Below are positions 2,935 to 59,270 of a stretch of DNA of 64,000 bases, piece by piece. Positions within the stretch are counted from its first letter, which is position 1; the number at the start of each line of letters is the position of its first letter. The notes under the pieces were generated by a model. It made no database searches. It was given only the letters and a program-made list of their open reading frames with translations, and was not told the DNA's origin. The position numbers and the translations under genes were made by a program. Where the stretch lies: NCBI GenBank assembly GCA_963789835.1, contig CAWBMF010000003.1, forward strand, positions 441,068 to 505,067, written 5' to 3'. Origin of the DNA: an uncultured delta proteobacterium (GTDB lineage: Bacteria > Desulfobacterota > Binatia > Binatales > Binataceae).

Positions 2935-3016
2935 GTCTCGCACACTGCGCGGCTCGCGTTTGAACCACAACCTCAAACTATCCATGAAAAGACGAAACTT
3001 CTTGAAGTAGTTAACG

Positions 3017-4771
3017 ATGAATACAGATCTAGTGACAGACAAAACCGACGAGCGCAGTCCCACCTCAGATAGGTTCGATCGCGTTTTCTGGAAACGCTTT
3101 TGGCGATTGATCCGCCCGTATTGGACATCGGAAAGACGGCGGTCGGCCTTCGTGCTGGTTTCGGCAATGACGGTGCTGAATCTCGGCACGGTCGGGATGC
3201 AAGCGGTTTTCAGCTACGTGTCGCGCGACGTGATGAACGCGCTGCAAGCGAAAGACGCCGCACGGTTTCATCATCTCCTGGTGCTATTCGCGCTTTGGAT
3301 CGTGGTGTTCGTGCCCATCGCTGCCTTTTATCCATACTTAAGCGGGCTCCTCAGCATCGACTGGCGCGACTGGATGACAGAAAAATTTGTCAAAGGCATG
3401 CTGCAGGGCAACGCGCTTTACTACATCATGCGCGATCGTACGGTCGACAATCCCGACCAGCGGATCAGCGAAGACGTCAATAGCTTCACGAGCGGTGCGC
3501 TTACCTACTCGATGACCGTGCTGCAGGCGATCGTAACTGCAATCGCGTTTTTTGGAATCTTGTGGGAGATCTCGCGTTGGCTCGCCGTAAGCTTGATCGG
3601 CTATTCGCTGGTCGGCAGCTGGCTGGCCATCGTCATCGGACGCCGTCTGATAGTTATCAACTTCAATCAGCAACGGTTCGAAGCGGACTATCGGTTCGGA
3701 TTGGTCCACGCGCGCGACAATGCCGAAGCGATCGCGCTCTACGACGGCGCGCGCGATGAAGCTCATCAGCTAGGGCGGCGCTTTGCGAGGGTGGTCAACA
3801 ATTACAAGCTGCTCATTTTGTGGCAGCGTCATCTGACGCTCTTTACAGCCGCCTACGACAACGCGGCCAACCTCGTCCCATATTTCGTTTTGGCCGGCGC
3901 CTACTTTTCCGGACGTTTTGCGCTGGGCGAATTTACCCAAGCGGCGTATGCGTTTTCGATTCTGCAGAGTTCGATGGCGCTGGTTGTCGATCAATTCCAG
4001 GCACTTACCGACTACGCATCGGTGGTTAATCGTCTGTCGGTTTTCGAGGAGTCCTGTGAAAAGGCAGCCAGCAAGCAAAGCGATGGCGAGCAGCAAATCG
4101 AGGTAGCGGAAGATGACTCACAGATTGCGCTTAAGAACATCACCCTGGCGACGCCGGATCGCGCGCGCGTTTTGCAGCAGGATGTTTCACTTGCGGTCGC
4201 CCGTAGAGACTCTCTGCTGATCACCGGTCCGACCGGTGCGGGCAAGACCTCGCTCATGAGGGCTGTCGCGGGCCTATGGAGAGCCGGTAGCGGGGGAATC
4301 TTGCGGCCGTCGCCGAATCATATCCTGTTCATGCCACAAAAGCCTTATTTGATCCTGGGTTCGATTCGCCAACAGATTCAATATCCAAGGGCCGACGCGG
4401 TCAGCGACGAAACTCTCATGGAAGTGCTGCGCGAAGTCGACCTTGCCTATCTCCCCGGCCGGTTCGGCGGTCTCGACGCCGAGCTCAACTGGGCCGACTT
4501 GCTGTCGGGGGGCGAGCAGCAGCGTCTGGCCTTCGCGCGGCTCCTGCTCAGTCGACCGCGCTTTGCAATTCTCGACGAGGCAACCAGCGCTCTCGATATT
4601 GCTTCTGAAGAGCGCTTGTACTCGCGGCTTGCGAGCCTGCCCATCGCCTTTATCAGCATCGGGCACCGGCCAAGCCTGCGCAAATTCCATAACCGGGTGA
4701 TCGAGCTGTCCCTTGGCTCCGAGTCGCCGATCGAGATCGTCGGATGCGCCACTAACGAGTCCTCATCCTGA
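3017..4771 (+). CDS. fused ABC transporter permease/ATP-binding protein (ABCD / SbmA-BacA-like, ABC_membrane_2 type)
   Basis: N-terminal TM domain contains the NPDQRISEDV motif. C-terminal NBD has Walker A (GPTGAGKTS), the ABC signature LSGGEQQRLAFARLL and Walker B (ILDEATSALD). Confidence 0.8.
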   Translation: MNTDLVTDKTDERSPTSDRFDRVFWKRFWRLIRPYWTSERRRSAFVLVSAMTVLNLGTVGMQAVFSYVSRDVMNALQAKDAARFHHLLVLFALWIVVFVPIAAFYPYLSGLLSIDWRDWMTEKFVKGMLQGNALYYIMRDRTVDNPDQRISEDVNSFTSGALTYSMTVLQAIVTAIAFFGILWEISRWLAVSLIGYSLVGSWLAIVIGRRLIVINFNQQRFEADYRFGLVHARDNAEAIALYDGARDEAHQLGRRFARVVNNYKLLILWQRHLTLFTAAYDNAANLVPYFVLAGAYFSGRFALGEFTQAAYAFSILQSSMALVVDQFQALTDYASVVNRLSVFEESCEKAASKQSDGEQQIEVAEDDSQIALKNITLATPDRARVLQQDVSLAVARRDSLLITGPTGAGKTSLMRAVAGLWRAGSGGILRPSPNHILFMPQKPYLILGSIRQQIQYPRADAVSDETLMEVLREVDLAYLPGRFGGLDAELNWADLLSGGEQQRLAFARLLLSRPRFAILDEATSALDIASEERLYSRLASLPIAFISIGHRPSLRKFHNRVIELSLGSESPIEIVGCATNESSS

Positions 4772-16011: not shown

Positions 16012-18012
16012 ATGAACGATGCTGCGATGAAGATTGCACGCGACTGCGGGACCATACTCCCACTGATTCTTGCTCTGCTAGTGGGATCGTTGGTGCTTAG
16101 CGGATGCGGTGGTGGATCGAGTTCAAACTCGCAAGAGCATCGACGGCCGACGCCGACCGCCACGCCCACGCCTCCGCCCCCGGGCATCGTCGGCTTTCTA
16201 GTTGGCGGTTCACCGTCGGTTGGCAGTCCAATCAGCGGGGCCGTGATTACCTTGTATCAGGCGAGCGCGAGCGGCTATGGCACGGGAGCGCTCCAGCTCG
16301 CGCAGGTAGATTCACAATCCGACGGCAGCTTCAGCGTCTCGTCGTTCACGTGCCAGACTACGGGCTATTCGCAACAGATTTACCTGGTCGCGACCGGCGG
16401 CACGATTAGCGGTCAAAGCAACGCCAACCCAGCTATCGCGCTGGGCGCGGGCATCGGCACGTGCACCAACTTTGCTCACTCAGTGGTCATCAATGAAGCG
16501 ACCACAATTGCGACAGTCTGGGCGCTGGATCAGTTCATGGATCCGACCGGGCAAAACGTCGGGACGTCGGCGACCAACCAGACCGGGCTCAACAACTCCG
16601 CAACCGCGATGAGCTCGGACAGCTTCGTCGACCTGAGCACCGGGCTTGCACCAACGTCGTTTCCGGACGGGCTTACCTCGCCCACCGCCACACTATATTC
16701 ATTGGCCAACATATTGTCCGCATGTGTAAATTCGTCCGGCGAAAGCTCCGCCGGCTGTCAAAATCTGTTCAGCGCGGCGACTCCGCCTGGTGGCGTCGCG
16801 CCTACAACCACAGTGCAGGCGGCGCTGGACATCGCGCGCAATCCAGTCAACAACGTCAGCGCCCTGTTCGCGTTGATACCAGCCAGCCCGCCTTTCTCGC
16901 CGGGTCTGACTTCGGCGCCGGCAAGTTGGGTACTGGCGCTCAATTACGCGCCTGCAAGCGCCGATTTCAAATCGCCGTACCAAATCGCTTTAGATGCAGC
17001 CGGCAACGTTTGGGTAGTGAACGCCAGTGGCGACAGCGTCACCGAATTGATCGGCGCAAGTGGCTACACGACGGCACTGGAATTCGCACCCTCCGGCGCC
17101 GATCTGAGCTTCCCGGACTGGCTCGCCTTTGACGCGGCGGGCAACTTATGGGTGGCGAATCTGAACAGCAACAGTATTAGTGAACTGACAGCCACGAGCA
17201 ATTACTCGACTGGCTTTAATTTCGCGCCGGCGGGTGCGGTCCTAAGCAATCCTCTCTCGATCGTTTTCGATGCCGCCGACAACCTTTGGGTGGCGAACTT
17301 TGGCGGCGACAGCGTCAGTGAATTGCTGGCCGGATGCTCCAGCGCGACTTGCACCGGGACAAATTTTAACAACTCGAACACCGGCAGCCCCGGCGCCCTA
17401 TTCAGCAGTCCCAGCTCAATCATTGCCGACGTGGCCGGCAATCTGTGGATTACGAACTTCGCCGGCAATAGTGTCACCGAATTGCTGACAGGATGCTCCA
17501 GCACAGCTTGCACCGGCGCCAATTTCAATAGCAGCAACACCGGCAGTCCTGGCGCATCGTTTGCCGCGCCGCTCGAGGTTGAGGTCGACGGTGCTGGCAA
17601 TATCTGGGCGGTAAATTCCAACGGCAACAGCTTGAGCGAACTACCCGCAGGCTGCACTCTCGCCAGCTGTACCGCCGGAAATTTCAACAACTCAAATACC
17701 GGTAGCCCTGGTGCAATTTTCAGCGGTCCCAACTCGCTTGCAATCGACTCCAGCGCGAACATCTGGGTCGAAAATCTATCCGGCAACAGCGTGAGTGAGC
17801 TGACCGCGTCGAGTAGCTACGCGACCGGCTTCAACTTCGGACCCTGGCCAATAGCTTATGCGCAGTTCTCAATCGCGGCCGATGCGTCGGGCAACCTCTG
17901 GATAGCGAATAACTACGACGACAGTGTAAGCGAGGTGGTGGGTGTCGCAACTCCTATACTCACTCCTTCGCTAGCCTGCCTTCAGCTTGGCCGTAACGTG
18001 TGCCTGCCGTAG
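16012..18012 (+). CDS. NHL-repeat (beta-propeller) lipoprotein
   Basis: Lipobox LVLSGCGGG, then a Pro/Thr linker, then ~8 tandem ~45-aa repeats of the type FxxPxxIAxDxxGNLWVxNxxxNSVSELxA. Confidence 0.6.
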   Translation: MNDAAMKIARDCGTILPLILALLVGSLVLSGCGGGSSSNSQEHRRPTPTATPTPPPPGIVGFLVGGSPSVGSPISGAVITLYQASASGYGTGALQLAQVDSQSDGSFSVSSFTCQTTGYSQQIYLVATGGTISGQSNANPAIALGAGIGTCTNFAHSVVINEATTIATVWALDQFMDPTGQNVGTSATNQTGLNNSATAMSSDSFVDLSTGLAPTSFPDGLTSPTATLYSLANILSACVNSSGESSAGCQNLFSAATPPGGVAPTTTVQAALDIARNPVNNVSALFALIPASPPFSPGLTSAPASWVLALNYAPASADFKSPYQIALDAAGNVWVVNASGDSVTELIGASGYTTALEFAPSGADLSFPDWLAFDAAGNLWVANLNSNSISELTATSNYSTGFNFAPAGAVLSNPLSIVFDAADNLWVANFGGDSVSELLAGCSSATCTGTNFNNSNTGSPGALFSSPSSIIADVAGNLWITNFAGNSVTELLTGCSSTACTGANFNSSNTGSPGASFAAPLEVEVDGAGNIWAVNSNGNSLSELPAGCTLASCTAGNFNNSNTGSPGAIFSGPNSLAIDSSANIWVENLSGNSVSELTASSSYATGFNFGPWPIAYAQFSIAADASGNLWIANNYDDSVSEVVGVATPILTPSLACLQLGRNVCLP

Positions 18013-18465
18013 CCCTCTCGCAGTTTCATGCGAAGGGCGGTGTGAAGACGACTTAGTCGGCGGGCAGGTTCCAGATTAGGAATGCGCGCTGGCGCTCGGC
18101 GATAGGGTGATACTGGTTGGCGGCATTACCACCCGTTCTCACAATGGTTGGCTCTTCGACACGAGCAGCCGTCAGCATCGCGATCCATCGAGGGCGCTGG
18201 TTGTATCCAGGTAAAATCTGATCCTGGGTAACAGGTGGCTCAACGTGTGGTAGCAGGAAGAACCGTTCGCTGATGTAGGTTACCGGGTGCGCCGCTTAAC
18301 CAGCCGTAGATTTCGTATGTCGAGCTCGCTGGTGAGGATCATCTGCACCAGGCTCCCTCCTGATTTGCTGGACCTTCTTCTCGACGAGTATCGAAGAATT
18401 CATTGCCGGCGTGCGCCATCGTGCGGAGACGGAGAAGTGACCGCCTGGGACGGGCGGCTAAGCAC

Positions 18466-18666
18466 TCATTTTTGAGTCGAGCTCTTACCCTTTCCCGACA
18501 GTGAGACGGTCTGTTGAAACATCGGCCACGGCGAGGTAGCCAATTGCGCCCGCGCCGATACCACCGCAAGAATCAGAGCGGTCGCTCCCACGCAGGCAGT
18601 CAAGAAATTCTTTTTCAACCGCCTGGTTCCTCTCTCATGTTCCCGGTATTCACAGGAGGCCGTCAA
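18466..18666 (-). CDS. hypothetical small secreted protein
   Basis: Signal-like KKNFLTACVGATALILAVVSARAQL; 66 aa. Weak call. Confidence 0.25.
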   Translation of the reverse strand: MTASCEYREHERGTRRLKKNFLTACVGATALILAVVSARAQLATSPWPMFQQTVSLSGKGKSSTQK

Positions 18667-18696
18667 CCCGGAAAGCGTGACCCGAACCGCCCAACC

Positions 18697-20292
18697 TTAT
18701 GGCTCGAGGCAAAAGACTGGTCCCGGAGCACAGCCCCACCCGCTGAGTTCGTCCCACCAGATGGCTGTTTCTGTCGAGCTTCCAAAAATTTCAGTAGAAG
18801 TTTCTGAACTCCAGTCATCACAGGTATCCGTGAGATTTCCTCTCAGGTTCGGAGCTGTCGAGCCGGTGGACGGGTTCTGATCAAAGACTGTGGAATAGGT
18901 GCCGTCCGCGTGTTGCCAGATGCCGCTGCTGATGGCGCCCATTGCCAGCGAGGGAGCGTCGGCGATTTTGATCCCATCGGGACGCACGAACGGCTTCGAC
19001 CCCACGGTCATGTCGAAGCGTGAAGCTGCGGACGCTGTAGAAGTCGATAGCAGCGCCATAAAGGTGTCGGCATTTGCGAGCCCTGCGCTGGATGCTTCTG
19101 TTTGGCAGATCTTATCGGCCATCGCGATACCAGTGGATGGATCGAGATCTGTTTTCGATACGAAAGCGACTCGGCCGGAAACCGGTGTGTATGTCAGCTG
19201 CTCCGCATGAGACGTATCGAAGCAATAAAGATGCAATTGTTCGTTGTCATTGCAGCCAAAGGCTTCGTTGTCGTCGCTCCACTGGGCCGGGCCGCCGTCG
19301 AAGTGGCCGCTCTCGCCAAATTCTCCGCCGGAAATCGAGGTCCAGTCGTTGCAGGTTCCGTAAGGGCTTAAGGTCCCGGCGTTGGTCGAGCCGGTCCACA
19401 CATCTGAGTTCTCCGCTTCGCGTATGTCGTTGCCGGATTCATCCAGGTCGATGGGGTTCAGGATCTTGCCGGATGTGAGATCTGACGCCTGATCTGCAAT
19501 CGGTGCTCCATCGACCCGAACAAACGCGCGCGCACTTCCGAGCCTGCTAACTGCATCCACTGTCGAGGTCGAAAGCCACGCCTTGTAGGTTCCGGTGGGA
19601 AGCCCTGCATTGTTGGCCAACATCTGGCACGCCGAATCTGCGCCACTTATGCCCGTGCCGTCGATACTGCCGTCATAAACTTGAGAAGTCACGAATACCA
19701 CGTTAACCCCTGGCGAGGGCGTGGCAGTTGGTGTCGCGGTGGATGTTATCGTCGGAGTCGCAGTAGGCGTTGCCGTTGCCGTGGCAGACGCCGTTGCGGT
19801 TTCGGATGCTGTCGCCGTCGGAGTCGCAGTCCCCGTCGGCGTGGCAACCGCCGCGATTCCGATCCCTATCAGCTTCACCTTCTGTGGTTTCCTGACGCCC
19901 GCTTCGGTGAACCTCAACAGCCCATGTTTGAATTCGCCCTTCTTGAGCGGCACGAATGCCACCGAGACGCTGCAAGTGCCGCCCAATGCTGCGATCACGC
20001 CCTTGCATTCGTTGTCTTCGATCGCGAAGCCTGCGCTGATACCCACCGCCGGCGCAGCCAACTCGACGCTGCCGTTATTCGTCAGTGTGACTGTTTGCAG
20101 CGCGCTCATTAATCCCGCCGGCACTTTGCCGAACGTCAGTTTCTTCGGAGATAGTGCGACCGGCCGCTTACTGATCGACGAAATCACAGATTGTGCCGAG
20201 GCGAGGCGGGCCGCCGCAGACAAAATTACGCAAACACCCGCAACTGCTCCGATTCCCCATCTGGCGAGACGGGCAAAGGCGAACTTGAACAC
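18697..20292 (-). CDS. secreted protein with Thr/Ala/Pro linker and two tandem Cys-containing domains
   Basis: Signal peptide, an Ig-like N-terminal domain, a TPTGTATPTATASETATAS... linker, then two homologous modules (ADSACQMLANNAGLPTGTYKAWLSTSTVDAVSRL... and ADKICQTEASSAGLANADTFMALLSTSTASAASRF...). Confidence 0.55.
   Translation of the reverse strand: MFKFAFARLARWGIGAVAGVCVILSAAARLASAQSVISSISKRPVALSPKKLTFGKVPAGLMSALQTVTLTNNGSVELAAPAVGISAGFAIEDNECKGVIAALGGTCSVSVAFVPLKKGEFKHGLLRFTEAGVRKPQKVKLIGIGIAAVATPTGTATPTATASETATASATATATPTATPTITSTATPTATPSPGVNVVFVTSQVYDGSIDGTGISGADSACQMLANNAGLPTGTYKAWLSTSTVDAVSRLGSARAFVRVDGAPIADQASDLTSGKILNPIDLDESGNDIREAENSDVWTGSTNAGTLSPYGTCNDWTSISGGEFGESGHFDGGPAQWSDDNEAFGCNDNEQLHLYCFDTSHAEQLTYTPVSGRVAFVSKTDLDPSTGIAMADKICQTEASSAGLANADTFMALLSTSTASAASRFDMTVGSKPFVRPDGIKIADAPSLAMGAISSGIWQHADGTYSTVFDQNPSTGSTAPNLRGNLTDTCDDWSSETSTEIFGSSTETAIWWDELSGWGCAPGPVFCLEP
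19715..19865 (-). repeat. low-complexity Thr/Ala/Pro-coding tract (GCx/ACx codon repeats) inside the 18697..20292 CDS
   Basis: Plus strand reads gtcgcagtaggcgttgccgttgccgtggcagacgccgttgcggtttcggatgctgtcgccgtcggagtcgcagtccccgtcgg... Confidence 0.6.
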
Positions 20293-20620
20293 AACCCATT
20301 GTTAACACACTTCGAGGGAATAAGACGAAAAGAAAATACCTACGCTATGTGCCGTTGATGCGCAGGCGCTTTGATGATGGGGAACCGAACCATAGCGTCT
20401 TGAACCGAGACGAGTGTGAGGCAGATCATCATTCTTATGTCTTGTTGGGGACGTGATGGAAATTGCCATGAAAGGTGACTATCGCGGCATCGGTGCCGTT
20501 GACCTGAATCAATTCCTTTCCGCTCATTGCGATCAGGTTGTCGCTCTTCATCGCGATGTTTTCATCAGCGTAGATATCTTCCCGCGCATAGAACGGAAAA
20601 ACCCAAAGCAGGTCGTAGTC

Positions 20621-21022
20621 CTACTCGACCAAAGCGTGATTTCGCAGTCGGCTGGTACGGAGTCTCACATCGACCGCCGTGACATGATTGTCGAAGGCAA
20701 CAACGGTCAAATTGCTGTTGCCCAACTCGAATTCGGTGAGCACCAGATCTCCGCCACCTTCAGGACGGTGCCTGTAGCACAGCTGGTAGGTGATAGGTTC
20801 ATCGCGCAGCTGCTTGCCCGTCCAATTCAACGGAGTGAGTGAATCGCGGCCGTCAATCGTTCCTTCCCAGCATCCGTAGAAAGAAGCAGGCAAATCGTAG
20901 TCGAACGAGTCCAGCATGTTCGGCTTCAGAGCGTCCGCGTCGGGATTGGGAGCTGTCGTGCTGCAGCCTGTATAGATGAGCACCGCGAGAACACCGGCGA
21001 AGAGGCTGAATGACCGCGTCAA
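20621..21022 (-). CDS. lipoprotein; frame continues after an in-frame TAG for a further 62 codons (to 20435)
   Basis: Lipobox LIYTGC. After ...NHALVE-TAG the same frame reads DYDLLWVFPFYAREDIYADENIAMKSDNLIAMSGKELIQVNGTDAAIVTFHGNFHHVPNKT up to a TAA at 20435-20437. Confidence 0.4.
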   Translation of the reverse strand: MTRSFSLFAGVLAVLIYTGCSTTAPNPDADALKPNMLDSFDYDLPASFYGCWEGTIDGRDSLTPLNWTGKQLRDEPITYQLCYRHRPEGGGDLVLTEFELGNSNLTVVAFDNHVTAVDVRLRTSRLRNHALVE

Positions 21023-21058
21023 TGGTTCTTGCTGCGCCGCGCCTTGGACTTGCCTGCC

Positions 21059-22414
21059 TCAACAACCCGGCACATTGGTGCAGTTATCGGGCTGGTTGTT
21101 TCGCACGGGGCTGTCCTTGAAGCTCACAACGCCGCTGAAGACGTAGATGCCGCCACCGTCGGTGCTGGCAGTGTTGTCACTGACACGGCTTCCTTCCAGC
21201 GTCAGGGTCCCGTCGTCGGTGATGACGATCCCTCCGCCCAGCCCGCCGATCGGGCCGCTGGCGATGTTCTGAGAGACCCGACTGCGATCCAGGCGCACCG
21301 AACCACCGAATACGGCCAACCCACCGCCCTTTTGGCCGGTGGTGGTTGAGACAGCTTGATTTTCATCTATGGGACTATTTATCAGGGTTAGCCTGCCCCT
21401 ATCATTGGCGACCCCGCCGCCGTCGACGCCTGAGACGTTTTGAGCGATTGGACTGTTGGTTAATTCCGCGCTGGCGTCGAAGCCATTGTTTAGACCGCCG
21501 CCAGTGAGTGATGCCGAGTTACCGCGAATCTGGGTAGATGTAACCGAGACGGTGCCGCCGAGATTGTTAATGCCGCCCCCGATATCGGCCGTATTGCCAG
21601 CGATCAAACTGTTCTTCACGGTCATGGTCGGATTGTTGCGCACCGATGCCATGCGGTTGTTATCGAGCCCGCCGCCACCGGCTAGAGAGCCCTCTGTCGT
21701 GTGGTTGTCGACAATGCTGCAGTGGTTCACTTCAAGTTGACCTTGATTCTCGATGCCGCCTCCACCGCCGGCGGTCCCCACTATTTGGTTGCCACTTATT
21801 ATAGAGTGACTCAGGTACGCTATGCCGAAGTTGCGAAGGCCGGCCCCTGCCGCAACCGGGGGAGTCGGTGGAGGTGGAGGGGGCGGAGGTGGAGGCGGAG
21901 GCGGAGGTATCGTGGCTTCGTTGTCAATTACCTTGCAACGAATCAGCGTGAGCGTTCCATCGACGTCGTTGGCGATGCCCCCAGAAGCCTCTTGCCCTAC
22001 GTTTTGGCTGACGGTCACGTCGATAAGCTTCAGGGTGCCGTGATTCAGTATCCCGCCGGCAGCCAGACCTTTACCATTCGTGATGGTCACGCCGCTGATG
22101 GTTACGTCGTAATCGGTATCAACCTCCAGCACCAAGTCCTGCTGGTTTCCATCGACGATCGTCGTGAGCGCGCCCGAACCCTGCAGGGTTAGTCGCTTGG
22201 CCGCAGTGGGTGGGAGGATGCGCGGAGTCTCGGTGTAGGTCCCCGGAGCAATCTTGATGGTGTCACCTGTCTGGGCGGCGTCAATAGCGGCCTGGATGGT
22301 TGAGTATGGACAGCCATTGGCGCAGACGCGCAACTTGCCAGCCAAGGCGGTCGACGGGCGAATCCCTACGACAGCGATTGCCGCAACTAGAAGCATGACG
22401 AAGCGCATCCGCAT
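21059..22414 (-). CDS. secreted right-handed parallel beta-helix repeat protein with internal poly-proline tract
   Basis: Signal peptide MRMRFVMLLVAAIAVVG...ALA and CANGCPYSTIQAAIDAAQTGDTIKIAPGTY (pectate-lyase-like cap). Repeated NxxxxGGG(I/L)xN units. Central PPPPPPPPPPPPPPTPP. Confidence 0.6.
   Translation of the reverse strand: MRMRFVMLLVAAIAVVGIRPSTALAGKLRVCANGCPYSTIQAAIDAAQTGDTIKIAPGTYTETPRILPPTAAKRLTLQGSGALTTIVDGNQQDLVLEVDTDYDVTISGVTITNGKGLAAGGILNHGTLKLIDVTVSQNVGQEASGGIANDVDGTLTLIRCKVIDNEATIPPPPPPPPPPPPPPTPPVAAGAGLRNFGIAYLSHSIISGNQIVGTAGGGGGIENQGQLEVNHCSIVDNHTTEGSLAGGGGLDNNRMASVRNNPTMTVKNSLIAGNTADIGGGINNLGGTVSVTSTQIRGNSASLTGGGLNNGFDASAELTNSPIAQNVSGVDGGGVANDRGRLTLINSPIDENQAVSTTTGQKGGGLAVFGGSVRLDRSRVSQNIASGPIGGLGGGIVITDDGTLTLEGSRVSDNTASTDGGGIYVFSGVVSFKDSPVRNNQPDNCTNVPGC
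21838..21905 (-). repeat. GGN/CCN trinucleotide tract encoding a 14-Pro run
   Basis: Plus strand ggaggtggagggggcggaggtggaggcggaggcggaggt. Minus-strand translation PPPPPPPPPPPPPPTPP. Confidence 0.7.
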
Positions 22415-22793
22415 TTCCCAAACCCCCTGGCGCACCAATCAGGTCACAGAACGAACAGCAATGAATCGGCTCAATAGACTCATCATTCGGGATCACGAGT
22501 CAAATGCCGCCGGTTCTGTCCGGAGCCGCGAACAAGGTGATCCAGGTGGTTTGGCTACCGCTTAGCGCGCACCGAGCGTTACGATCTGCGGCATCCGCGA
22601 ACGCACTTCTTGCGCCGCCCCGGTTGGACTTATCGGACGTTCCGGGGCTGACCTATCGCAAGCGGTACATCGACAATTTCTCGTGGCTCGACGAGTTAGA
22701 GCTCGACGCTTGAGAGGTACAAGAGGTGGCCATTGTATGATTCAAGGTTCGACGGAAAAATCGTACGGCGGCTCCGTTCTGCAGGGATGCTTC

Positions 22794-23432
22794 CTAACAC
22801 CCACGTCCGGGAGGCTCACAAGGGAAACAACAACCACCATCGCAACAACCTTTGGAATAACACCTCGCGGTCCCGCATTTGTGGGACGGAGCCGGACGCG
22901 GAACGTGTAAGTGGTCCAGCATAAAGAGAGTTCCAATTCCGGTTTGTGGATCATAGGTCAACCGCCGAGTGCCCTTTCCCCACCCGAGGTTGACGGAAAC
23001 TACGGTCGGGCCGTGGAATATATCTTCGGAGTCAGACAACGAACAAGTCAGACCTGAATAACTCACCGAAAAGCCACCCAATATGCCGCTGGTTTCTATT
23101 TCGTCATTACCAAAGGTATTGCAGCAGGTCTGCATTCCATGGGGCGCACAGTCCGTCATCTGAAAATTTCCAGAAGAAGTCACGCTGTGCTTCCCATCTC
23201 CAGAACTGCCCTCGAACTGAAGGCAGATCGCATCGGAGTCGCAAGAAGAATATGGAGAGAGGGTAACCGCCATCTTCTTGCGAAATGTAACCTCTTCGTG
23301 ATGAATCCCGCTGGGATTGCGAGCGGAATTGTCGTCCAGGTCCTGCGCAAAGACAGATTGCACCGCAAGCGCAATTGGGATTAGTGCCGCCAGTAAAATC
23401 CACCGGCCTCTATTCGTTTTGAGCAGTGTCAT
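22794..23432 (-). CDS. secreted Cys-rich protein, unknown function
   Basis: Start MTLLKTNRGRWILLAALIPIALAVQSVFAQ (signal peptide) overlaps the upstream gene stop (ATGA at 23429-23432). C-terminus reads CYSKGCCDGGCCFPCEPPGRGC. Confidence 0.45.
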   Translation of the reverse strand: MTLLKTNRGRWILLAALIPIALAVQSVFAQDLDDNSARNPSGIHHEEVTFRKKMAVTLSPYSSCDSDAICLQFEGSSGDGKHSVTSSGNFQMTDCAPHGMQTCCNTFGNDEIETSGILGGFSVSYSGLTCSLSDSEDIFHGPTVVSVNLGWGKGTRRLTYDPQTGIGTLFMLDHLHVPRPAPSHKCGTARCYSKGCCDGGCCFPCEPPGRGC

Positions 23433-25594
23433 AATTTCCCCCCTTCGATGAGAGATGAACCGAAAGACGCGGTTCGCGCGGTGGTCGCTTCCTCTGGCGT
23501 CGACGGCGCTGGCATCCATGTTGGCGCATCCACGACGTAGCCGTTGTGAGCGGGAACTTGCACAGAAATCGACATTGTCGTCGGTGCGTAATCAGTGGGA
23601 GTGTGAGCGATGAACCCGATGGCGTAAGAATGCCGATCGCCGATCTCGCCCTCGATTTCTTCGCAAGCTTTTTTCAGCGCTGCACCGTCGCCAACTTTCT
23701 GGATTAAATAACTCTTGCCGCCGTTCGCACTGGCAAGTCGCGAGAGCGTAACGGTATCGACATGTTCGGAGTCGTCTCCACTCATAACAAAAGGCCCCAT
23801 CATTACGCTCGTTCCGCGTGGCGCGTTCGGATCTCCAATTCCGATCGAGTACACGAGCACGCCGCTACTCTTCGCCGCCTGCACGACCTCATCAGCGGTC
23901 GAGGAACTGGTGTTGTCCATGCCGTCCGTTATCACCAGCAAGACTTTTTTCTGATTGTGGGACTGCTCGACCTCGGCAATACCTTGCTTGATCGTGTCGA
24001 ACAGCGCGGTCTGGCCGTATGCGTGAAGCAAGTCGAGTCGTTGAATCACGGCCTGGTGGTCGTTGGTGAGCGGTTGTAACCGATATGGTTTATTTGAAAA
24101 CGCGAAGAGGAACACGTCGTCCTGTGGGTCGAGCGTCTTGACGAACTGTTCGATCGCGGCGCGAGCCTGCGGCAGCTTCGGAACCATACTGCCGGAAGTG
24201 TCGACCAGGATTCCGACCGCCGCCGGAGATTCTTCGCCAGCGCGAAAGAAATCGATTGGTAGCGGAGCACCATTGAGGGAAAGCTTGAAGTCGTTCTTGC
24301 TCAATCCCTCGACATAGCTGCCGTCGGGTTTTGCGACCGTCGCCGCGATTTCGGTATAGCCAGGAAGAGTGCGAATCGATTCGGGCGCGACAATGTCTGT
24401 CAAAGTGCCGACCTCGCGCTTCGGCATGGCCGGCCTGGCGGCGGCCTCGGCGAGCATTTCCGACGGCACCATTTCGGCGCGGACTACCCCGCCGGAATTG
24501 TTCGCAAGAGTCACGGTCGGCGCGGTCTTTCCTGGCGGCTGATCGACACCTAACTCATAGCCGCTGCCGAGTTCTTTGTTGATCGTAGTGACGGCCTCCG
24601 CCAGCGAAGATCCTTGATCAGAATCCACCGGCCTGGCGAACAGCACCCATCCGCCACCATCCGCAGCCAACTTCTTCACAGCGCCGGCATCGAGCCGAGT
24701 CGTGCCGCGCAGTTTCGCCAAGAGTCCTTCCTGCGCATCCGGATCGCCGATTCCAATCACCCAGAACGAGACGCCGCTCTCCCGAAGCTGCGCGAGCACC
24801 GGAGCGCTTTGGTCGATCGCCGCCTGGTCGAGGCCATCGGTCATCAGTACCAGCGCGCGATTTGGATAGTGTGCACCAGCGAGAGTCTCAAGCCCCATCC
24901 TAAGACCTTCGGAAAGCCGTTTCTCGCCCGAGGGAATCACCGAATACATTTTTTGCAGCGCAAGCGATTTGTCCGTCGTGAACGTCTGCGCGAGCGTTAC
25001 GGCGCCCAACGGCTGCTGAGCGATGGAAGAGGGATCGTTCAGGTATTTACCCCCAATCAGCACGAGAGCGACTTCGTCGCATTGGTTGAGCTGGCCTTCA
25101 GCCTGGTTCAGACCGCTTCGTGCCCTCTCAAGATTCTCCTGCGACGAAACGACGGTCTTCCGGTACATGCTTTCAGAAACATCGCCAACAATAACCAGAG
25201 AGACTGGGTTCGCGAGGGTGGATTCCTGACGAAAATAGACGATTGGATCCGGGTTCGGACCGGACCGCACTGCGAAATCGCCTTTTTTTAAGCCGTCGAG
25301 CGGCGCACCGTTCGCGTCCGTCAGCAAAACGGCCAGCTGCGTGTACCCCGGTTTGGAAAGGATGCCAGCGGCCGGGAGATCTGGCAGCCGGCAAAGTTCG
25401 AGCGGGGCGGGGGCCGCACTTGTCGCAGATGACGCGTTTGCGCTCGTGGCTGCCGCGTTTGGCGATCCGGGCGCAGGCTGACTCGCAGCGCCGCAACCCG
25501 CGATTACTCCTGCACAGGCCAGCAATACCAGGTATCGTTCAAAACATCGTTGGCGCATTGCCGGAATCCCCCCAACGATGATCTCGTATCGCAA
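23429..25594 (-). CDS. lipoprotein with two tandem von Willebrand factor A (VWA) domains
   Basis: Lipobox LLACAGVIAGC. Two repeats of the pattern VxLVxDxSxSM...TALxDxI...LLxITDGxD...GVxxYxIGIGDP (MIDAS-like DxSxS). Confidence 0.65.
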   Translation of the reverse strand: MRYEIIVGGIPAMRQRCFERYLVLLACAGVIAGCGAASQPAPGSPNAAATSANASSATSAAPAPLELCRLPDLPAAGILSKPGYTQLAVLLTDANGAPLDGLKKGDFAVRSGPNPDPIVYFRQESTLANPVSLVIVGDVSESMYRKTVVSSQENLERARSGLNQAEGQLNQCDEVALVLIGGKYLNDPSSIAQQPLGAVTLAQTFTTDKSLALQKMYSVIPSGEKRLSEGLRMGLETLAGAHYPNRALVLMTDGLDQAAIDQSAPVLAQLRESGVSFWVIGIGDPDAQEGLLAKLRGTTRLDAGAVKKLAADGGGWVLFARPVDSDQGSSLAEAVTTINKELGSGYELGVDQPPGKTAPTVTLANNSGGVVRAEMVPSEMLAEAAARPAMPKREVGTLTDIVAPESIRTLPGYTEIAATVAKPDGSYVEGLSKNDFKLSLNGAPLPIDFFRAGEESPAAVGILVDTSGSMVPKLPQARAAIEQFVKTLDPQDDVFLFAFSNKPYRLQPLTNDHQAVIQRLDLLHAYGQTALFDTIKQGIAEVEQSHNQKKVLLVITDGMDNTSSSTADEVVQAAKSSGVLVYSIGIGDPNAPRGTSVMMGPFVMSGDDSEHVDTVTLSRLASANGGKSYLIQKVGDGAALKKACEEIEGEIGDRHSYAIGFIAHTPTDYAPTTMSISVQVPAHNGYVVDAPTWMPAPSTPEEATTARTASFGSSLIEGGKL

Positions 25595-44818: not shown

Positions 44819-45955
44819 TTAGCCGAACATCTCCTTGAGCTTGTCGACGAAGCCCTTGGAGAGCGGATGGTTGACGGCTTTGCCGTCGAGCTTGGCAAAT
44901 TCCTCGAGCAGCTCGCGCTGGCGCGCCGTCAGGCTGCGCGGCGTCTCGACGATCACCTTGATTAGCTGGTCGCCTTTTCCGTAGCCGTGAAGATCGACGA
45001 TGCCCTTGCCCTTGAGGCGCAGAATCTTGCCCGACTGCGTGGCGGCCGGAATCTTCAGCTTCACTTTGCCTTCGAGCGTCGGCACTTCAATCTCGGTGCC
45101 GACCGCCGCCTGCGGGAAACTGATCGGCGCTTCGATTATCACGTCGTTGTCCTGGCGCACGAACATCTCGTGCTCCTTGACGTGGATGACGACGTAGAGA
45201 TCGCCCTGCGGCCCGCCGCCGTAGCCGGCCTCGCCCTCGCTGCGCAGCTTGAGGCGCGATCCATTGTCGACGCCCGGCGGAATTTTCACGGCGAGCGATT
45301 CATGCTTGCGGATTCGCCCCTGTCCCTGGCACTTGGGGCACGGGTCGGAAATGATCATGCCTTCGCCGCGGCATTGCCCGCAGGTCGTCGAGATCGAAAA
45401 AAATCCCTGCTGCGTGCGCACCTGGCCGCTGCCGCGGCAATTGGGGCACTGGCGTGCGCCGCTGGAGCCGCCGCGCGCGCGCGTGCCGTTGCACGACTCG
45501 CATTGCGTGAGGCGCTGGAACTTTACGACTCGCTCGACTCCGCGCGCCGCTTCTTCGAATTCGATTTCCAGATCGTAGCGCAGGTCGTCGCCGCGCCGGG
45601 TGCGCGAGCGCGAACGTCCGCGGCCGGTGCCGAAGAAATCGCCGAAGATGTCGGAGAAAACTTCCTCGAAGCCCTGGCTGAAGTCGAAGCCCCCGAATCC
45701 GCCCGGACCGCCCTGCGGTCCCTGGAAGGCCGCGTGACCGAAGCGATCGTACTGCGCGCGCCGCTCGGGATCGGACAGAACCTGGTAAGCCTCGTTGAGT
45801 TCCTTGAATCGCTCCTCGGCTTCCTTGTTGCCGGGATTGCGATCGGGATGACACTGAATGGCGAGCGTGCGGTAGGCCTTCTTCAGCTCTACTTCGCTGG
45901 CTCCCCGATTGACACCGAGAATTTCGTAGTAATCTCGCTTATTGGCTGGCGGCAT
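44819..45955 (-). CDS. dnaJ: chaperone DnaJ
   Basis: J-domain YYEILGV...HPDRNP, G/F-rich region, four CxxCxGxG zinc-finger repeats. Confidence 0.92.
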
Positions 45956-46040
45956 CGCGCAAAAATTCTATGCCATCATCAGTGGCGACGCCATTGGCGT
46001 GTTGAAAAGAAAGGGGCCGCTTGCGCGGCCCCGCCAATCG

Positions 46041-47984
46041 CTACTGATCTTTGACTTCTTTGTAGTCCGCATCGACTACGTCTTCTTTCGCTCCGCTTTC
46101 GCCGTTACCGCTCTGAGAGCCACTCTGCGCGCCTGCGCTATCCTGCGGCCCGGCTCCCGCTTGCGGTCCCGCTCCAGCTTTGGTCTTGCTGTACATCGCT
46201 TCGGCCAGCTTGTGCGACGCGTTCTGCAACGCCTCGGCCGCGCGATTGATCTCGTCGGCGTCCTTGGACTCGAGCTTGGTCCTCGCTTCCGCCAGCGCGT
46301 CCTCGACCTGCTTGCGCCCGGCTTCGTCGATTTCGGCGCCATGATCCTTCAGCGTCTTCTCGGTCGTGTAGATCAGGTTGTCGAGCTTGTTGCGCGCCTC
46401 GGCCTGCTGACGGCGGGCATGGTCGTCGGCGGCATGCGCCTCGGCCTCGCGCACCATCTTCTTGATCTCTTCCTCGTTGAGTCCCGACGACGCCGTAATC
46501 TTGATCGACTGCTCCTTGTTGGTGCCCAGGTCCTTGGCGTGCACGTTCACGATTCCGTTCGCGTCGATATCGAACGTGACCTCGACCTGCGGCATCCCGC
46601 GCGGAGCCGGTGGAATTCCAATCAAGTCGAACTGGCCGAGCAGCTTGTTGTCCGACGCCATCTCACGCTCGCCCTGGAAGACGCGAATCGTGACCGCCGT
46701 CTGATTATCCTGCGCGGTCGAGAAGGTCTGGCTCTTGCGCGTCGGAATGGTCGTGTTCTTTTCGATCAGCTTGGTAAACACGCCGCCCAGCGTTTCGATT
46801 CCGAGCGAGAGCGGAGTCACGTCGAGCAGCAGTACGTCTTTGACTTCGCCCTTGAGCACGCCCGCCTGGATAGCCGCGCCAATCGCGACGACTTCATCCG
46901 GGTTGACGCCCTTGTGTCCTTCCTTGCCGAACAGGCGCTTCACGCGCTCCTGCACGGCGGGCATGCGGGTCATGCCTCCGACCAGCACGATCTCGTTGAT
47001 CTCGCTGGCCTTCAGGCCCGCATCGCGCAGCGCAGTGACGCATGGCGCGTCGAGCCGATCGAGCAGGTCGCCGCACAGCGCTTCGAGCTTGGCGCGCGAC
47101 AGCTTCATATTAAGATGCTTGGGGCCAGACTGATCGGCGGTGATGAACGGCAGATTGATATCCGTCTCGGTCACGGTCGACAGCTCGGTCTTGGCCTTCT
47201 CGGCCGCTTCCTTGAGCCGCTGCAGCGCCATCCGATCTTTGCGCAGATCGATCCCCTGGTCCTTGCGGAATTCGTCGGCCAGGTAGTCCATGATGCGCTG
47301 ATCGAAATCCTCGCCGCCGAGGAAGGTGTCGCCGTTGGTCGCCTTGACCTCGAACACGCCTTCGCCCAGCTCGAGAATCGAAATATCGAAAGTGCCGCCG
47401 CCGAGATCGAAGACCGCGATCTTTTCGTCCTTCTTCTTGTCGAGGCCGTACGCCAGCGATGCGGCCGTCGGCTCGTTGATAATTCGCAGCACGTTCAAGC
47501 CCGCGATCCGGCCGGCGTCCTTGGTCGCTTGCCGCTGGCTGTCGTTGAAGTACGCGGGCACGGTGATAACGGCCTCGGTGACTTTCTCGCCGAGGTAGTC
47601 CTCCGCCGTCTGCTTCATCTTCTGCAGAATGAACGCGGAAATTTCCGGCGGGCTGTATTTCTTGCCGCGGATTTCGACCCACGCCGCGCCGTCGTCGTTC
47701 TTCACGACTTTGTACGGCAGCACCTTGAGCGCCTTCTGAACTTCGGCGTCATCGTAACGCCGGCCCATCAGGCGCTTGATCGCAAAAACTGTGTTGGTTG
47801 GATTGGTGATCGACTGGCGCTTGGCGATCTGACCGACCAGCCGCTCGCCTGCCTCCGTGAATGCGACAACCGACGGTGTCGTGCGACTGCCTTCGGAGTT
47901 GGCGATAACTACCGGGTCGCCGCCCTCCATGATCGCGACGCAACTGTTGGTCGTGCCCAGATCGATACCGATTACTTTTGCCAT
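46041..47984 (-). CDS. dnaK: chaperone DnaK (Hsp70)
   Basis: [25 protein letters not shown], and the full-length Hsp70 pattern. Confidence 0.95.
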
Positions 47985-48034
47985 GTTTCTAAAGGTCCCC
48001 TGATATAGAGCTTAAGATAAGAAATAATCACGCT

Positions 48035-56363: not shown

Positions 56364-56435
56364 GCCGATGTAGCTCAACGGTAGAGCACCTGATTTGTAA
56401 TCAGGTGGTTGCGAGTTCGATTCTCGCCATCGGCT
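56364..56435 (+). tRNA. tRNA-Thr (anticodon TGT)
   Basis: GCCGATGTAGCTCAACGGTAGAGCACCTGATTTGTAATCAGGTGGTTGCGAGTTCGATTCTCGCCATCGGCT. Cloverleaf with loop TTTGTAA. Confidence 0.75.
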
Positions 56436-56459
56436 TGGTCGGCATTTTTGCCTTCGGAG

Positions 56460-56545
56460 GGAGAGGTTCCCGAGTGGACAAAGGGAGCAGACTGTAAATC
56501 TGCCGGCTTATGCCTTCGAAGGTTCGAATCCTTCCCTCTCCACCA
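56460..56545 (+). tRNA. tRNA-Tyr (anticodon GTA), long variable arm, CCA encoded
   Basis: GGAGAGGTTCCCGAGTGGACAAAGGGAGCAGACTGTAAATCTGC...GGTTCGAATCCTTCCCTCTCCACCA. Near-identical core to E. coli tRNA-Tyr. Confidence 0.8.
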
Positions 56546-56571
56546 GTATGATATTTGGATCGACGGGAAGA

Positions 56572-56647
56572 GCGGGAGTAGCTCAGTTGGTAGAGCGCGA
56601 GCCTTCCAAGCTCGGGGTCGCGGGTTCGAGTCCCGTCTCCCGCTCCA
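56572..56647 (+). tRNA. tRNA-Gly (anticodon TCC)
   Basis: GCGGGAGTAGCTCAGTTGGTAGAGCGCGAGCCTTCCAAGCTCGGGGTCGCGGGTTCGAGTCCCGTCTCCCGCTCCA. Confidence 0.8.
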
Positions 56648-56727
56648 GAGTTTTCGCGATGACTAGAGGCAGCGAGTTTTGCGAGGCGTTTTTTACTGAG
56701 AGATTCCGGTTGAGCGGCGCATCGGAG

Positions 56728-56803
<76 letters not shown>

Positions 56804-56853
56804 AGTTTTGAGCGCCGGCTGAGCGGCGCAGGAATTTTTTCGAGGCTATTACA

Positions 56854-57009
56854 ATGAGAGATCTGATTTCACTTTCGTGCGACACCTGCAAGTCGCGCAA
56901 CTACACGACCAGCAAGAACAAGAAGACGCAGACCGACAAATTTTCGATCAAGAAATTCTGTCCGCGATGCCGCTCGCATACCGTGCACAAAGAAGGGAAA
57001 ATTACCTGA
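56854..57009 (+). CDS. rpmG: 50S ribosomal protein L33
   Basis: [51 protein letters not shown]: 51 aa with a C4 zinc ribbon. Below the 60-aa cutoff of the ORF track. Confidence 0.8.
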
Positions 57010-57050
57010 TCATTGTATATGCGGTGCGCAACACGCTTGCCTGAACAGAC

Positions 57051-57127
57051 GGGTCAGTAGCTCCAATTGGCAGAGCATCGGACTCCAAATCCGAGGGTTC
57101 CAGGTTCGACCCCTGGCTGGCCCGCCA
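57051..57127 (+). tRNA. tRNA-Trp (anticodon CCA)
   Basis: GGGTCAGTAGCTCCAATTGGCAGAGCATCGGACTCCAAATCCGAGGGTTCCAGGTTCGACCCCTGGCTGGCCCGCCA. Confidence 0.8.
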
Positions 57128-58118: not shown

Positions 58119-58544
58119 GTGGCTAAGAAAGTAGTCGGATCGATCAAGCTGCAGATTCCAGCGGGCGCGGCCAATCCGTCGCCGCCGGTGGGGCCTGCGC
58201 TCGGCCAGCGCGGCGTCAATATCATGGAGTTCTGCAAGGCCTTCAACGCGCAGACCCAGAACATGCAGGGCCTCGTCATCCCGGTAATCGTCACCGTCTA
58301 TGCCGACCGCTCGTTCACCTTCGTCACCAAGAGTCCGCCCGCATCTATCCTGCTGCTGCGCGCGGCGGGAATCGAAAAGGGCTCGCCGATGCCCAACAAG
58401 AACAAGGTCGGCAAGGTCACGCGCGCGCAGGTCGAGGAAATCGCCAAGACCAAGCTCAAGGACCTGACCGCGGCCGACCTGGCCGCCGCCGTAAACACGG
58501 TGTCGGGCACCGCCCGCAGCATGGGAATCGACGTCACCGACTGA
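58119..58544 (+). CDS. rplK: 50S ribosomal protein L11 (GTG start)
   Basis: [43 protein letters not shown]. Confidence 0.95.
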
Positions 58545-58556
58545 GGCTCAAAGAAC

Positions 58557-59270
58557 ATGGCAGGCAAGAAATATAAAGAAGCGCTCAAAAAGATCGATCG
58601 CGAAAAGCGCTACTCGCTCGAAGAAGCGGTCAAGCTGGTGGTCGACAACAAGGTCGCCAAGTTCGACGAGACGGTCGAAATCGCCGTGCGGCTCGGCGTC
58701 GATCCGCGCCAGGCCGATCAGAACGTCCGCGGCACTATCGTGCTGCCGCACGGCACCGGTTCGACCGCGCGCGTGCTGGTGGTGGCCAAGGGCGAGAAAG
58801 AGCGCGAGGCGCGCGAAGCGGGCGCCGACTTCGTCGGCGGCGACGACATCATTAAAAAGATACAGGAAGAGAACTGGCTCGACTTCGACCGCGTCATTGC
58901 CACGCCCGACATGATGGGCCAGGTCGGACGTATCGGCAAAATTCTCGGACCCCGCGGCCTGATGCCCAATCCGAAAGTCGGCACCGTCACCTTCGACGTC
59001 GCCAAGGCCGTCGCCGAAATCAAGGCCGGTAAGGTCGATTACCGCGTCGACAAGGCGGGCGTCGTCCACGCGCGCGTCGGCAAGCTGAGTTTCGGCGAGC
59101 AGAAGTTGCTCGACAACGTGCGCGCGCTGCTCGGTGCGATCGTTCGCTCCAAGCCGGCCAGCGCCAAGGGCAATTACGTGCGCAGCGTCGCGCTCGCCTC
59201 GACCATGGGCCCCGGTGTCCGCGTCGATACGGCGGTGGCGGCGCCCAAGGCGCTCGCGGCGGCAGCATAG
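58557..59270 (+). CDS. rplA: 50S ribosomal protein L1
   Basis: [27 protein letters not shown]...[10 protein letters not shown]. Confidence 0.95.

Follow-up and report, generated by a model that had tools for sequence, protein, structure and literature searches.

A premature TAG codon in a Candidatus Binatus lipoprotein gene very probably marks a young, still decaying pseudogene

Introduction

Bacterial nonsense pseudogenes that have been eroded by frameshifts and deletions are well documented, for example in Mycobacterium leprae and host-restricted Salmonella. Here, we analysed a 195-codon lipoprotein-like reading frame that is interrupted at codon 134 by an in-frame TAG, located on the minus strand of a 64,000-nucleotide (nt) stretch of DNA (hereafter, the window) from an uncultured delta proteobacterium of the family Binataceae (GenBank assembly GCA_963789835.1, contig CAWBMF010000003.1, positions 441,068 to 505,067). 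The initial annotation of this DNA had proposed a recent nonsense mutation, a sequencing error or a site of stop-codon readthrough as explanations for the interrupted frame. Like the described nonsense pseudogenes, the locus combines a single transition from CAG to a stop codon with intact and longer orthologues, additional lesions in sister sequences and an intact neighbouring gene. Nothing essential sets it apart from them, the Candidatus Binatus soil population being known here from metagenome contigs only.

The second group of described systems is programmed UAG decoding, comprising pyrrolysine incorporation in methylamine methyltransferases, suppressor transfer RNAs (tRNAs) and leaky termination, with which the locus shares homologous open sequence after the UAG. 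Unlike in these systems, orthologues do not share the UAG, genes in the same DNA commonly end in TAG, the window encodes no tRNA with a CUA anticodon, constraint has been lost and frameshifts are tolerated. We conclude that the gene is very probably an ordinary young pseudogene of an uncharacterised lipoprotein restricted to Candidatus Binatus, recently formed and still decaying, and that as a nonsense-mutation pseudogene it represents an already known, ordinary phenomenon.

An interrupted frame and its intact orthologues

The minus-strand frame begins MTRSFSLFAGVLAVLIYTGCSTT...NHALVE, meets TAG at 20623->20621 and continues as DYDLLWVFPFYAREDIYADENIAMKSDNLIAMSGKELIQVNGTDAAIVTFHGNFHHVPNKT to a terminal TAA. 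Translation of 20435-21022 into 133 sense codons, TAG, 61 sense codons and TAA confirmed the in-frame TAG of the initial annotation; the open frame that it reported beyond the amber codon was also recovered, its figure of 62 codons being one too high for sense codons as it included the TAA. The plus-strand shadow open reading frame (ORF) described for the same span exists as well (20453-20842, 129 amino acids (aa)), as is expected opposite a coding frame in ~55% GC DNA, and is unremarkable. Across all six frames of the whole window, 16% of stop-to-stop gaps offered at least 61 open codons after the stop, and 71 pairs of long ORFs in the same frame were split by one stop. Because such runs are common in the window, an open run after the stop is no proof by itself, and homology decides.

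A search with the read-through protein against 5.8 billion proteins recovered 25 homologues, most of them 182-213 aa long and all of them hypothetical proteins from soil metagenomes, with one labelled Candidatus Binatus sp.; a genome scan also gave a Candidatus Binatus metagenome-assembled genome (L009). Pfam and NCBIfam scans of the read-through protein returned no family, and no more than 53 relatives emerged when 1.84 billion cluster representatives were searched with a profile. All full-length relatives from this search extended to the C-terminus of the profile; those ending short were few and were contig-end fragments or broken alleles. The homologues aligned without gaps across the stop, encoding Gln (19/24), Ser (3/24) or His (2/24) at codon 134, and their alignment was best conserved in the C-terminal third of the protein.

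The closest intact orthologue, P0001 (195 aa, 91% protein identity), matched 57 of the 61 residues encoded after the TAG with its own C-terminus. Its DNA, found on seven contigs (L001-L007) at 93-94% nt identity to the window gene, reads GAG CAG GGC CAC GAC where the window reads GAG TAG GAC TAC GAC, and a 99.4% identical relative (L008) likewise reads CAG at codon 134. As orthologues carry CAG at the site, the stop arose via a single C>T transition. The ortholog comparison that the initial annotation had suggested thus returned a sense codon, none of the homologues ended naturally at the equivalent of codon 134, and the downstream codons were conserved. The orthologue sense codon and the homologous downstream C-terminus bear out the nonsense-mutation pseudogene that had been listed among its options.

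To place the lesion within the protein, we used an AlphaFold2 model of P0001 based on a 22-sequence alignment (mean predicted local distance difference test score (pLDDT) 80.9, predicted template modelling score 0.73). The model consists of a helix at residues 2-18 (low pLDDT) followed by eight to nine antiparallel strands, with the highest pLDDT in strands 142-160, 163-174 and 177-190; codon 134 falls inside strand 123-138. The only fold class assignable to the Binatus protein is that of small eight-stranded up-and-down beta-barrels (calycin/avidin/YceI-type and OmpA/NspA/OmpW-type), from which it differs in lacking a Pfam or NCBIfam match, in lacking a significant structural match (Foldseek against the PDB, none at E <= 0.001) and in belonging to a tiny family, represented by the 53 relatives above. 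Cys20 was invariant in alignment A4, and Cys51 and Cys82 were invariant in both alignments, a pattern consistent with export and possibly with lipidation and disulfide bonding. Within the putative lipobox, G at -1 and T at -2 conform, Y at -3 is atypical, and the orthologues carry F, Y, N, C, S or A at -3. The lipoprotein label, drawn from the signal-peptide-like N-terminus and the invariant Cys20, is plausible.

Distribution of the TAG allele among assemblies

Contigs of the same lineage were reached via a lineage-specific 39-mer, an exact look-up of the 451-aa product of the neighbouring gene and the broken product P0050. The 39-mer matched L008, a Joint Genome Institute (JGI) contig that is 99.4% identical over window positions 17964-21359. 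Look-up of the neighbouring product led to L011 and L012, from ENA ERZ25039470 and ERZ25039522 (contigs of 87.7 and 77.3 kb), which are 99.9% identical to window positions 18059-25414 and 100% identical across the lipoprotein gene, including TAG GAC TAC. In these two contigs, gene callers had annotated a 120-aa ORF from an internal GTG start and a 38-aa ORF. Through P0050 we recovered L013-L015, Logan assemblies of three SRA runs, which are 98.1-98.5% identical across the gene and of which L013 reaches into the downstream flank of the window. All three read TAG GGC TAC and carry an additional 1-nt deletion at codon 84.

The TAG was therefore carried by six sequences that differ from one another and stem from six data sets (the window, L011, L012 and L013-L015), which excludes random error, and systematic sequencing error is unlikely. 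Judged from these assembled contigs, CAG>TAG is shown to be a real, heritable nonsense mutation that is common to several near-identical strains in different metagenomes. As L013-L015 carry two of the three changes seen in the window, the TAG, G135D and H136Y arose stepwise.

L011, L012 and the window were mutually distinct, differing by 7-9 single-nucleotide polymorphisms (SNPs), all at 23074-24272. Over the 7.4 kb compared, 8-9 SNPs separated the window from L011 and L012, and most of these lay within 220 nt (24053-24272) of a VWA-domain gene (23429-25594), a patch that could be hypervariable or recombined.

The three substitutions (CAG GGC CAC > TAG GAC TAC) bring the site closer to the gene's own codons 40-44 (TTC GAC TAC GAT TTG, FDYDL), so that the residues DYDL recur after the stop. 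Intragenic conversion with codons 40-44 as donor (20890-20913, a repeat of 20608-20631) was considered and rejected, since two intervening mismatches were left unconverted and only two of the three changes occur in L013-L015. A quasi-palindrome (GTAG-GA-CTAC) was also rejected, as it is too short, with a 4-bp stem around a 2-nt loop, and as a single template switch does not reproduce the changes. The resemblance of TAG GAC TAC to codons 40-44 is probably a coincidence.

Relaxed constraint within the clade

The clade of the window comprised seven sequences (the window, L008, L011, L012 and L013-L015) that were 0.1-1.5% diverged, and none of the seven held an intact copy of the gene. L008, which retains CAG at codon 134, carries its own 2-bp deletion together with a C>T change that makes a TAG, at codons 79/80. 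Between the window and L001, omega was 0.28 for the gene (0.275 before the stop and 0.33 after) and 0.15 for the neighbouring 451-aa gene; the comparison between halves is uninformative because most of this divergence predates the mutation. Between the intact orthologues of L001 and L009, omega was 0.12 for the segment after codon 134 and 0.57 for the N-terminal part.

Within the clade, the gene had accumulated 12 missense, 2 nonsense, 2 frameshift and 5 silent events (omega ~0.7-0.8). After codon 134, there were seven missense changes (G135D, H136Y, I150T, I150N, N162I, H190D and N193D) and no silent change, an outcome with a probability of 2.7e-4 under an omega of 0.12 and of 0.19 under neutrality. 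The nearly invariant I150 was changed twice, and R190, invariant in alignment A4, had become His (R190H) throughout the clade. Differences between the window and L008 were also concentrated in the gene, with 12 of 21 falling inside its 588 nt across 3.4 kb aligned (binomial p = 4.5e-5) and no indel noise outside it. All of these signals run in the same direction and point to relaxed constraint on the gene in this clade.

Codons 150/162 and 190/193 occurred in four haplotype combinations among L013, L014, L015 and the window. This four-gamete violation implies recombination among strains or chimeric consensus assembly.

Taken together, a C>T transition turned CAG into TAG in a small Candidatus Binatus gene, and normal termination of the RF1 type at this codon would yield a 133-residue fragment, or ~113 residues after signal-peptide cleavage. 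With the last three strands of the predicted ~eight-stranded barrel missing, the fragment should be unable to fold, which would make the gene a young pseudogene. In this clade, the locus has gone on to gather lesions, and missense changes have accrued in it at a near-neutral pace; deletions have inactivated the gene independently in other lineages.

Readthrough, artefact and truncation as alternatives

Functional readthrough or recoding would require that UAG be decoded as Gln, by a near-cognate or suppressor tRNA, or as pyrrolysine, giving full-length lipoprotein, possibly at a regulated low level. The downstream frame remains open to the ancestral TAA with 57 of 61 residues identical to the orthologue, several strains and samples have retained the TAG allele, and the C-terminal omega of the window against L001 (0.33) is below 1, all of which would be compatible with continued translation, although this omega mostly reflects history before the mutation. 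Against this, the TAG is limited to a single lineage of 98.5-100% identity, with Q, H or S in other homologues, so that an in-frame stop conserved across orthologues was not observed. Purifying selection downstream of the stop was likewise not detected in the stop-bearing lineages, given the seven missense and no silent changes after the TAG, which affect I150 and R190, and the frameshift that L013-L015 tolerate upstream.

Terminator usage within the window led us to reject a genome-wide reassignment of TAG. This codon ends 10 of 50 other non-overlapping long ORFs (~20%), including rplA, uppP and ppk2, and Pfam matches run to the end of their profiles just before the terminal TAG in UppP/BacA (257/257), SpoU methylase (142/142) and ribosomal protein L1 (198/198), and to the second-last profile position in PPK2 (228/229). 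Among the six tRNAs of the window (Met, Thr, Tyr, Gly, Thr and Trp), none had a CUA anticodon. In the literature searched for Binatota and pyrrolysine, we found only a report of mttB homologues without pyrrolysine (PMC9999580). With TAG serving as a normal terminator, the stop confined to one lineage, sister copies frameshifted and downstream constraint lost, the readthrough option of the initial annotation is not upheld, and we consider functional recoding very unlikely.

A terminator-like hairpin over the TAG (20626->20606) was also evaluated and rejected, since such hairpins occurred at chance level (2 found and 2.8 expected); this reading is weakened further by the ancestral CAG version, which gives a better stem.

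An even smaller probability attaches to a sequencing or assembly artefact, in which the true codon is CAG and TAG is a base-calling or consensus error. Such an error might be suspected because the 28-mer spanning the TAG had no exact match in genome or metagenome contig collections, because the nearest JGI contig (L008) reads CAG, because three transitions within 7 nt look odd, and because ENA names of the type 'contig_N' may indicate long-read assemblies. The identical TAG in five other contigs from five samples, generated by two pipelines (ENA submissions and Logan), speaks against it and led us to discard random sequencing error. These contigs are not mutual copies, being separated by 7-9 SNPs elsewhere or by GGC and GAC in the next codon, and the window is free of indel noise relative to L008 outside the gene.

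It is just as improbable that the 133-residue product, or a split pair formed with the ATG-initiated 38-aa ORF at 20435-20551, is the functional form in this lineage: the start, signal peptide and Cys20 are kept in the window, L011 and L012, and gene callers annotated the 120-aa and 38-aa ORFs, but no homologue ends there naturally, the frameshifts of sister sequences at codons 79-84 destroy the N-terminal part too, its missense changes accrue at a near-neutral rate, and the stop lies within a beta-strand and in the model removes three of the ~eight strands of a single-domain barrel, leaving ~five with which the barrel could not close. The exact 133-aa product had no match in a collection of 15 billion proteins, and the exact 98-aa product was likewise without a match in the protein collection.

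Several considerations weigh against the interpretation of the gene as a young pseudogene. Very few changes were available to the selection tests, which drew on metagenome consensus contigs in which recombination or chimerism is indicated. After the TAG, the frame stays open for 61 codons that retain 93% identity to the intact orthologue, as continued translation would predict, and as recency would too. Suppressor tRNA or pyl genes may lie elsewhere in the genome, the scan having covered the 64-kb window. If the ENA contigs derive from long reads, a systematic base-calling error is conceivable in them, with the Logan contigs showing the same TAG.

Recurrent inactivation of the gene

Disrupted alleles of the gene were also found outside the clade of the window. 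L024 carries a 14-nt deletion (CTATCACCTACCAG, codons 76-80) flanked by CT microhomology, and contigs from eight JGI samples (L016-L023) share this deletion together with a C>AA change, leaving a product of 61 aa (P0027). In L025 (ENA ERZ25039553 contig_101839, 3001-3560), which belongs to a clade of ~75% identity, there are two 1-nt insertions and the stop is lost; stop-loss extensions are represented by P0030 and P0033. The neighbourhood of the gene in L025 differs, with a HhH-GPD glycosylase and a HTH regulator. Intact alleles are still common, P0026 alone occurring on 38 contigs.

At least five independent disrupting events were therefore present among ~100 contigs, namely TAG134, the codon-84 deletion, the lesion at codons 79/80, the 14-nt deletion and the L025 insertions. 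Four indel events fell within ~35 nt at codons 73-84 (window 20770-20805), around CCTATCACCTACCAGCTGTGCTACAGG, a clustering that suggests either a local deletion hotspot around this sequence or selection for loss of an exposed lipoprotein that might serve, for instance, as a phage or predator receptor. Phase variation via a simple repeat was not indicated, as the TAG is a base substitution and the indels of codons 73-84 lie outside simple repeats. From the pattern of alleles, the gene appears to be dispensable and repeatedly lost. It is possible, yet in our view rather unlikely, that loss of function recurrently, and possibly under selection, targets this gene across natural populations of Candidatus Binatus, and that it is not a one-off pseudogene.

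Feature coordinates and genomic neighbourhood

Table 1. Features of the disrupted lipoprotein gene and its upstream neighbour (window coordinates)
Feature	Position	Strand	Basis or remark
Whole disrupted gene	20435..21022	-	195-codon frame interrupted at codon 134; translation and gap-free alignment to ~195-aa homologues
N-terminal part, TTG start, 133 codons still open	20624..21022	-	ORF list
Signal-peptide-like N-terminus MTRSFSLFAGVLAVLIYTG-C with candidate lipidated Cys20	20963..21022	-	Read from sequence
Premature TAG, codon 134	20621..20623	-	CAG (Gln) to TAG, C>T transition at window base 20623
C-terminal remnant, 61 codons and ancestral TAA (20437->20435)	20435..20620	-	Last three long beta-strands in intact orthologues
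Missense pair directly 3' of the stop: GGC>GAC (G135D), CAC>TAC (H136Y)	20615..20620	-	Lineage-specific
Upstream neighbour, secreted repeat protein, 451/459 aa, poly-Pro tract	21059..22438	-	Same frame, 36 nt off

The upstream neighbour (Table 1) was called as a 451-aa product in L001, L003, L004, L011, L012, L016-L018 and L021, and a Pfam scan of this product gave no match. The gene was intact everywhere it was seen, in every clade, implying that decay is specific to the lipoprotein gene. Together, the repeat-protein gene, with its PPPPPPPPPPPPPPTPP tract, and the lipoprotein gene form a two-gene block (20389-22578) that is 93-94% identical at the nt level to L001-L007 (3441-5634 in L001). 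Homology breaks off abruptly at 20389 and 22578, beyond which the flanks are unrelated: VWA and DUF1554 genes in the window, OEP, NHL-like and GPDPase_memb genes in L001, and other genes downstream in L003, L005 and L007. Apparently, the two genes move or recombine together as a cassette; no repeats were found flanking it.

Elsewhere in the window, a 688-aa plus-strand ORF (45942-48008) matched Pfam PF10712, 'NAD-specific glutamate dehydrogenase' (E 6e-192). The opposite strand carries a clear dnaK there (46041-47984, minus strand; HSP70, E 1e-277), and the 688-aa ORF was rejected as a real gene, being of a known type of shadow-ORF family. A tRNA cluster of Thr-Tyr-Gly-Thr followed by Trp (56364-57127) precedes ribosomal protein genes (58119-59270, with L1 at 58557-59270), and this usual tuf/secE/nusG/rplKAJL neighbourhood indicates that the window is chromosomal core DNA.

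Implications

Annotators should record the locus as a single pseudogene of the ~195-aa lipoprotein family, and not as two small ORFs or as a case of recoding. The analysis also illustrates that strain-level contigs from other samples can stand in for reads when an in-frame TAG of a metagenome-derived genome is to be judged. Ultimately, this small, Binatus-specific family of putative beta-barrel lipoproteins appears to be dispensable and is repeatedly inactivated in the wild, whilst the co-located, beta-helix-like neighbour is retained.
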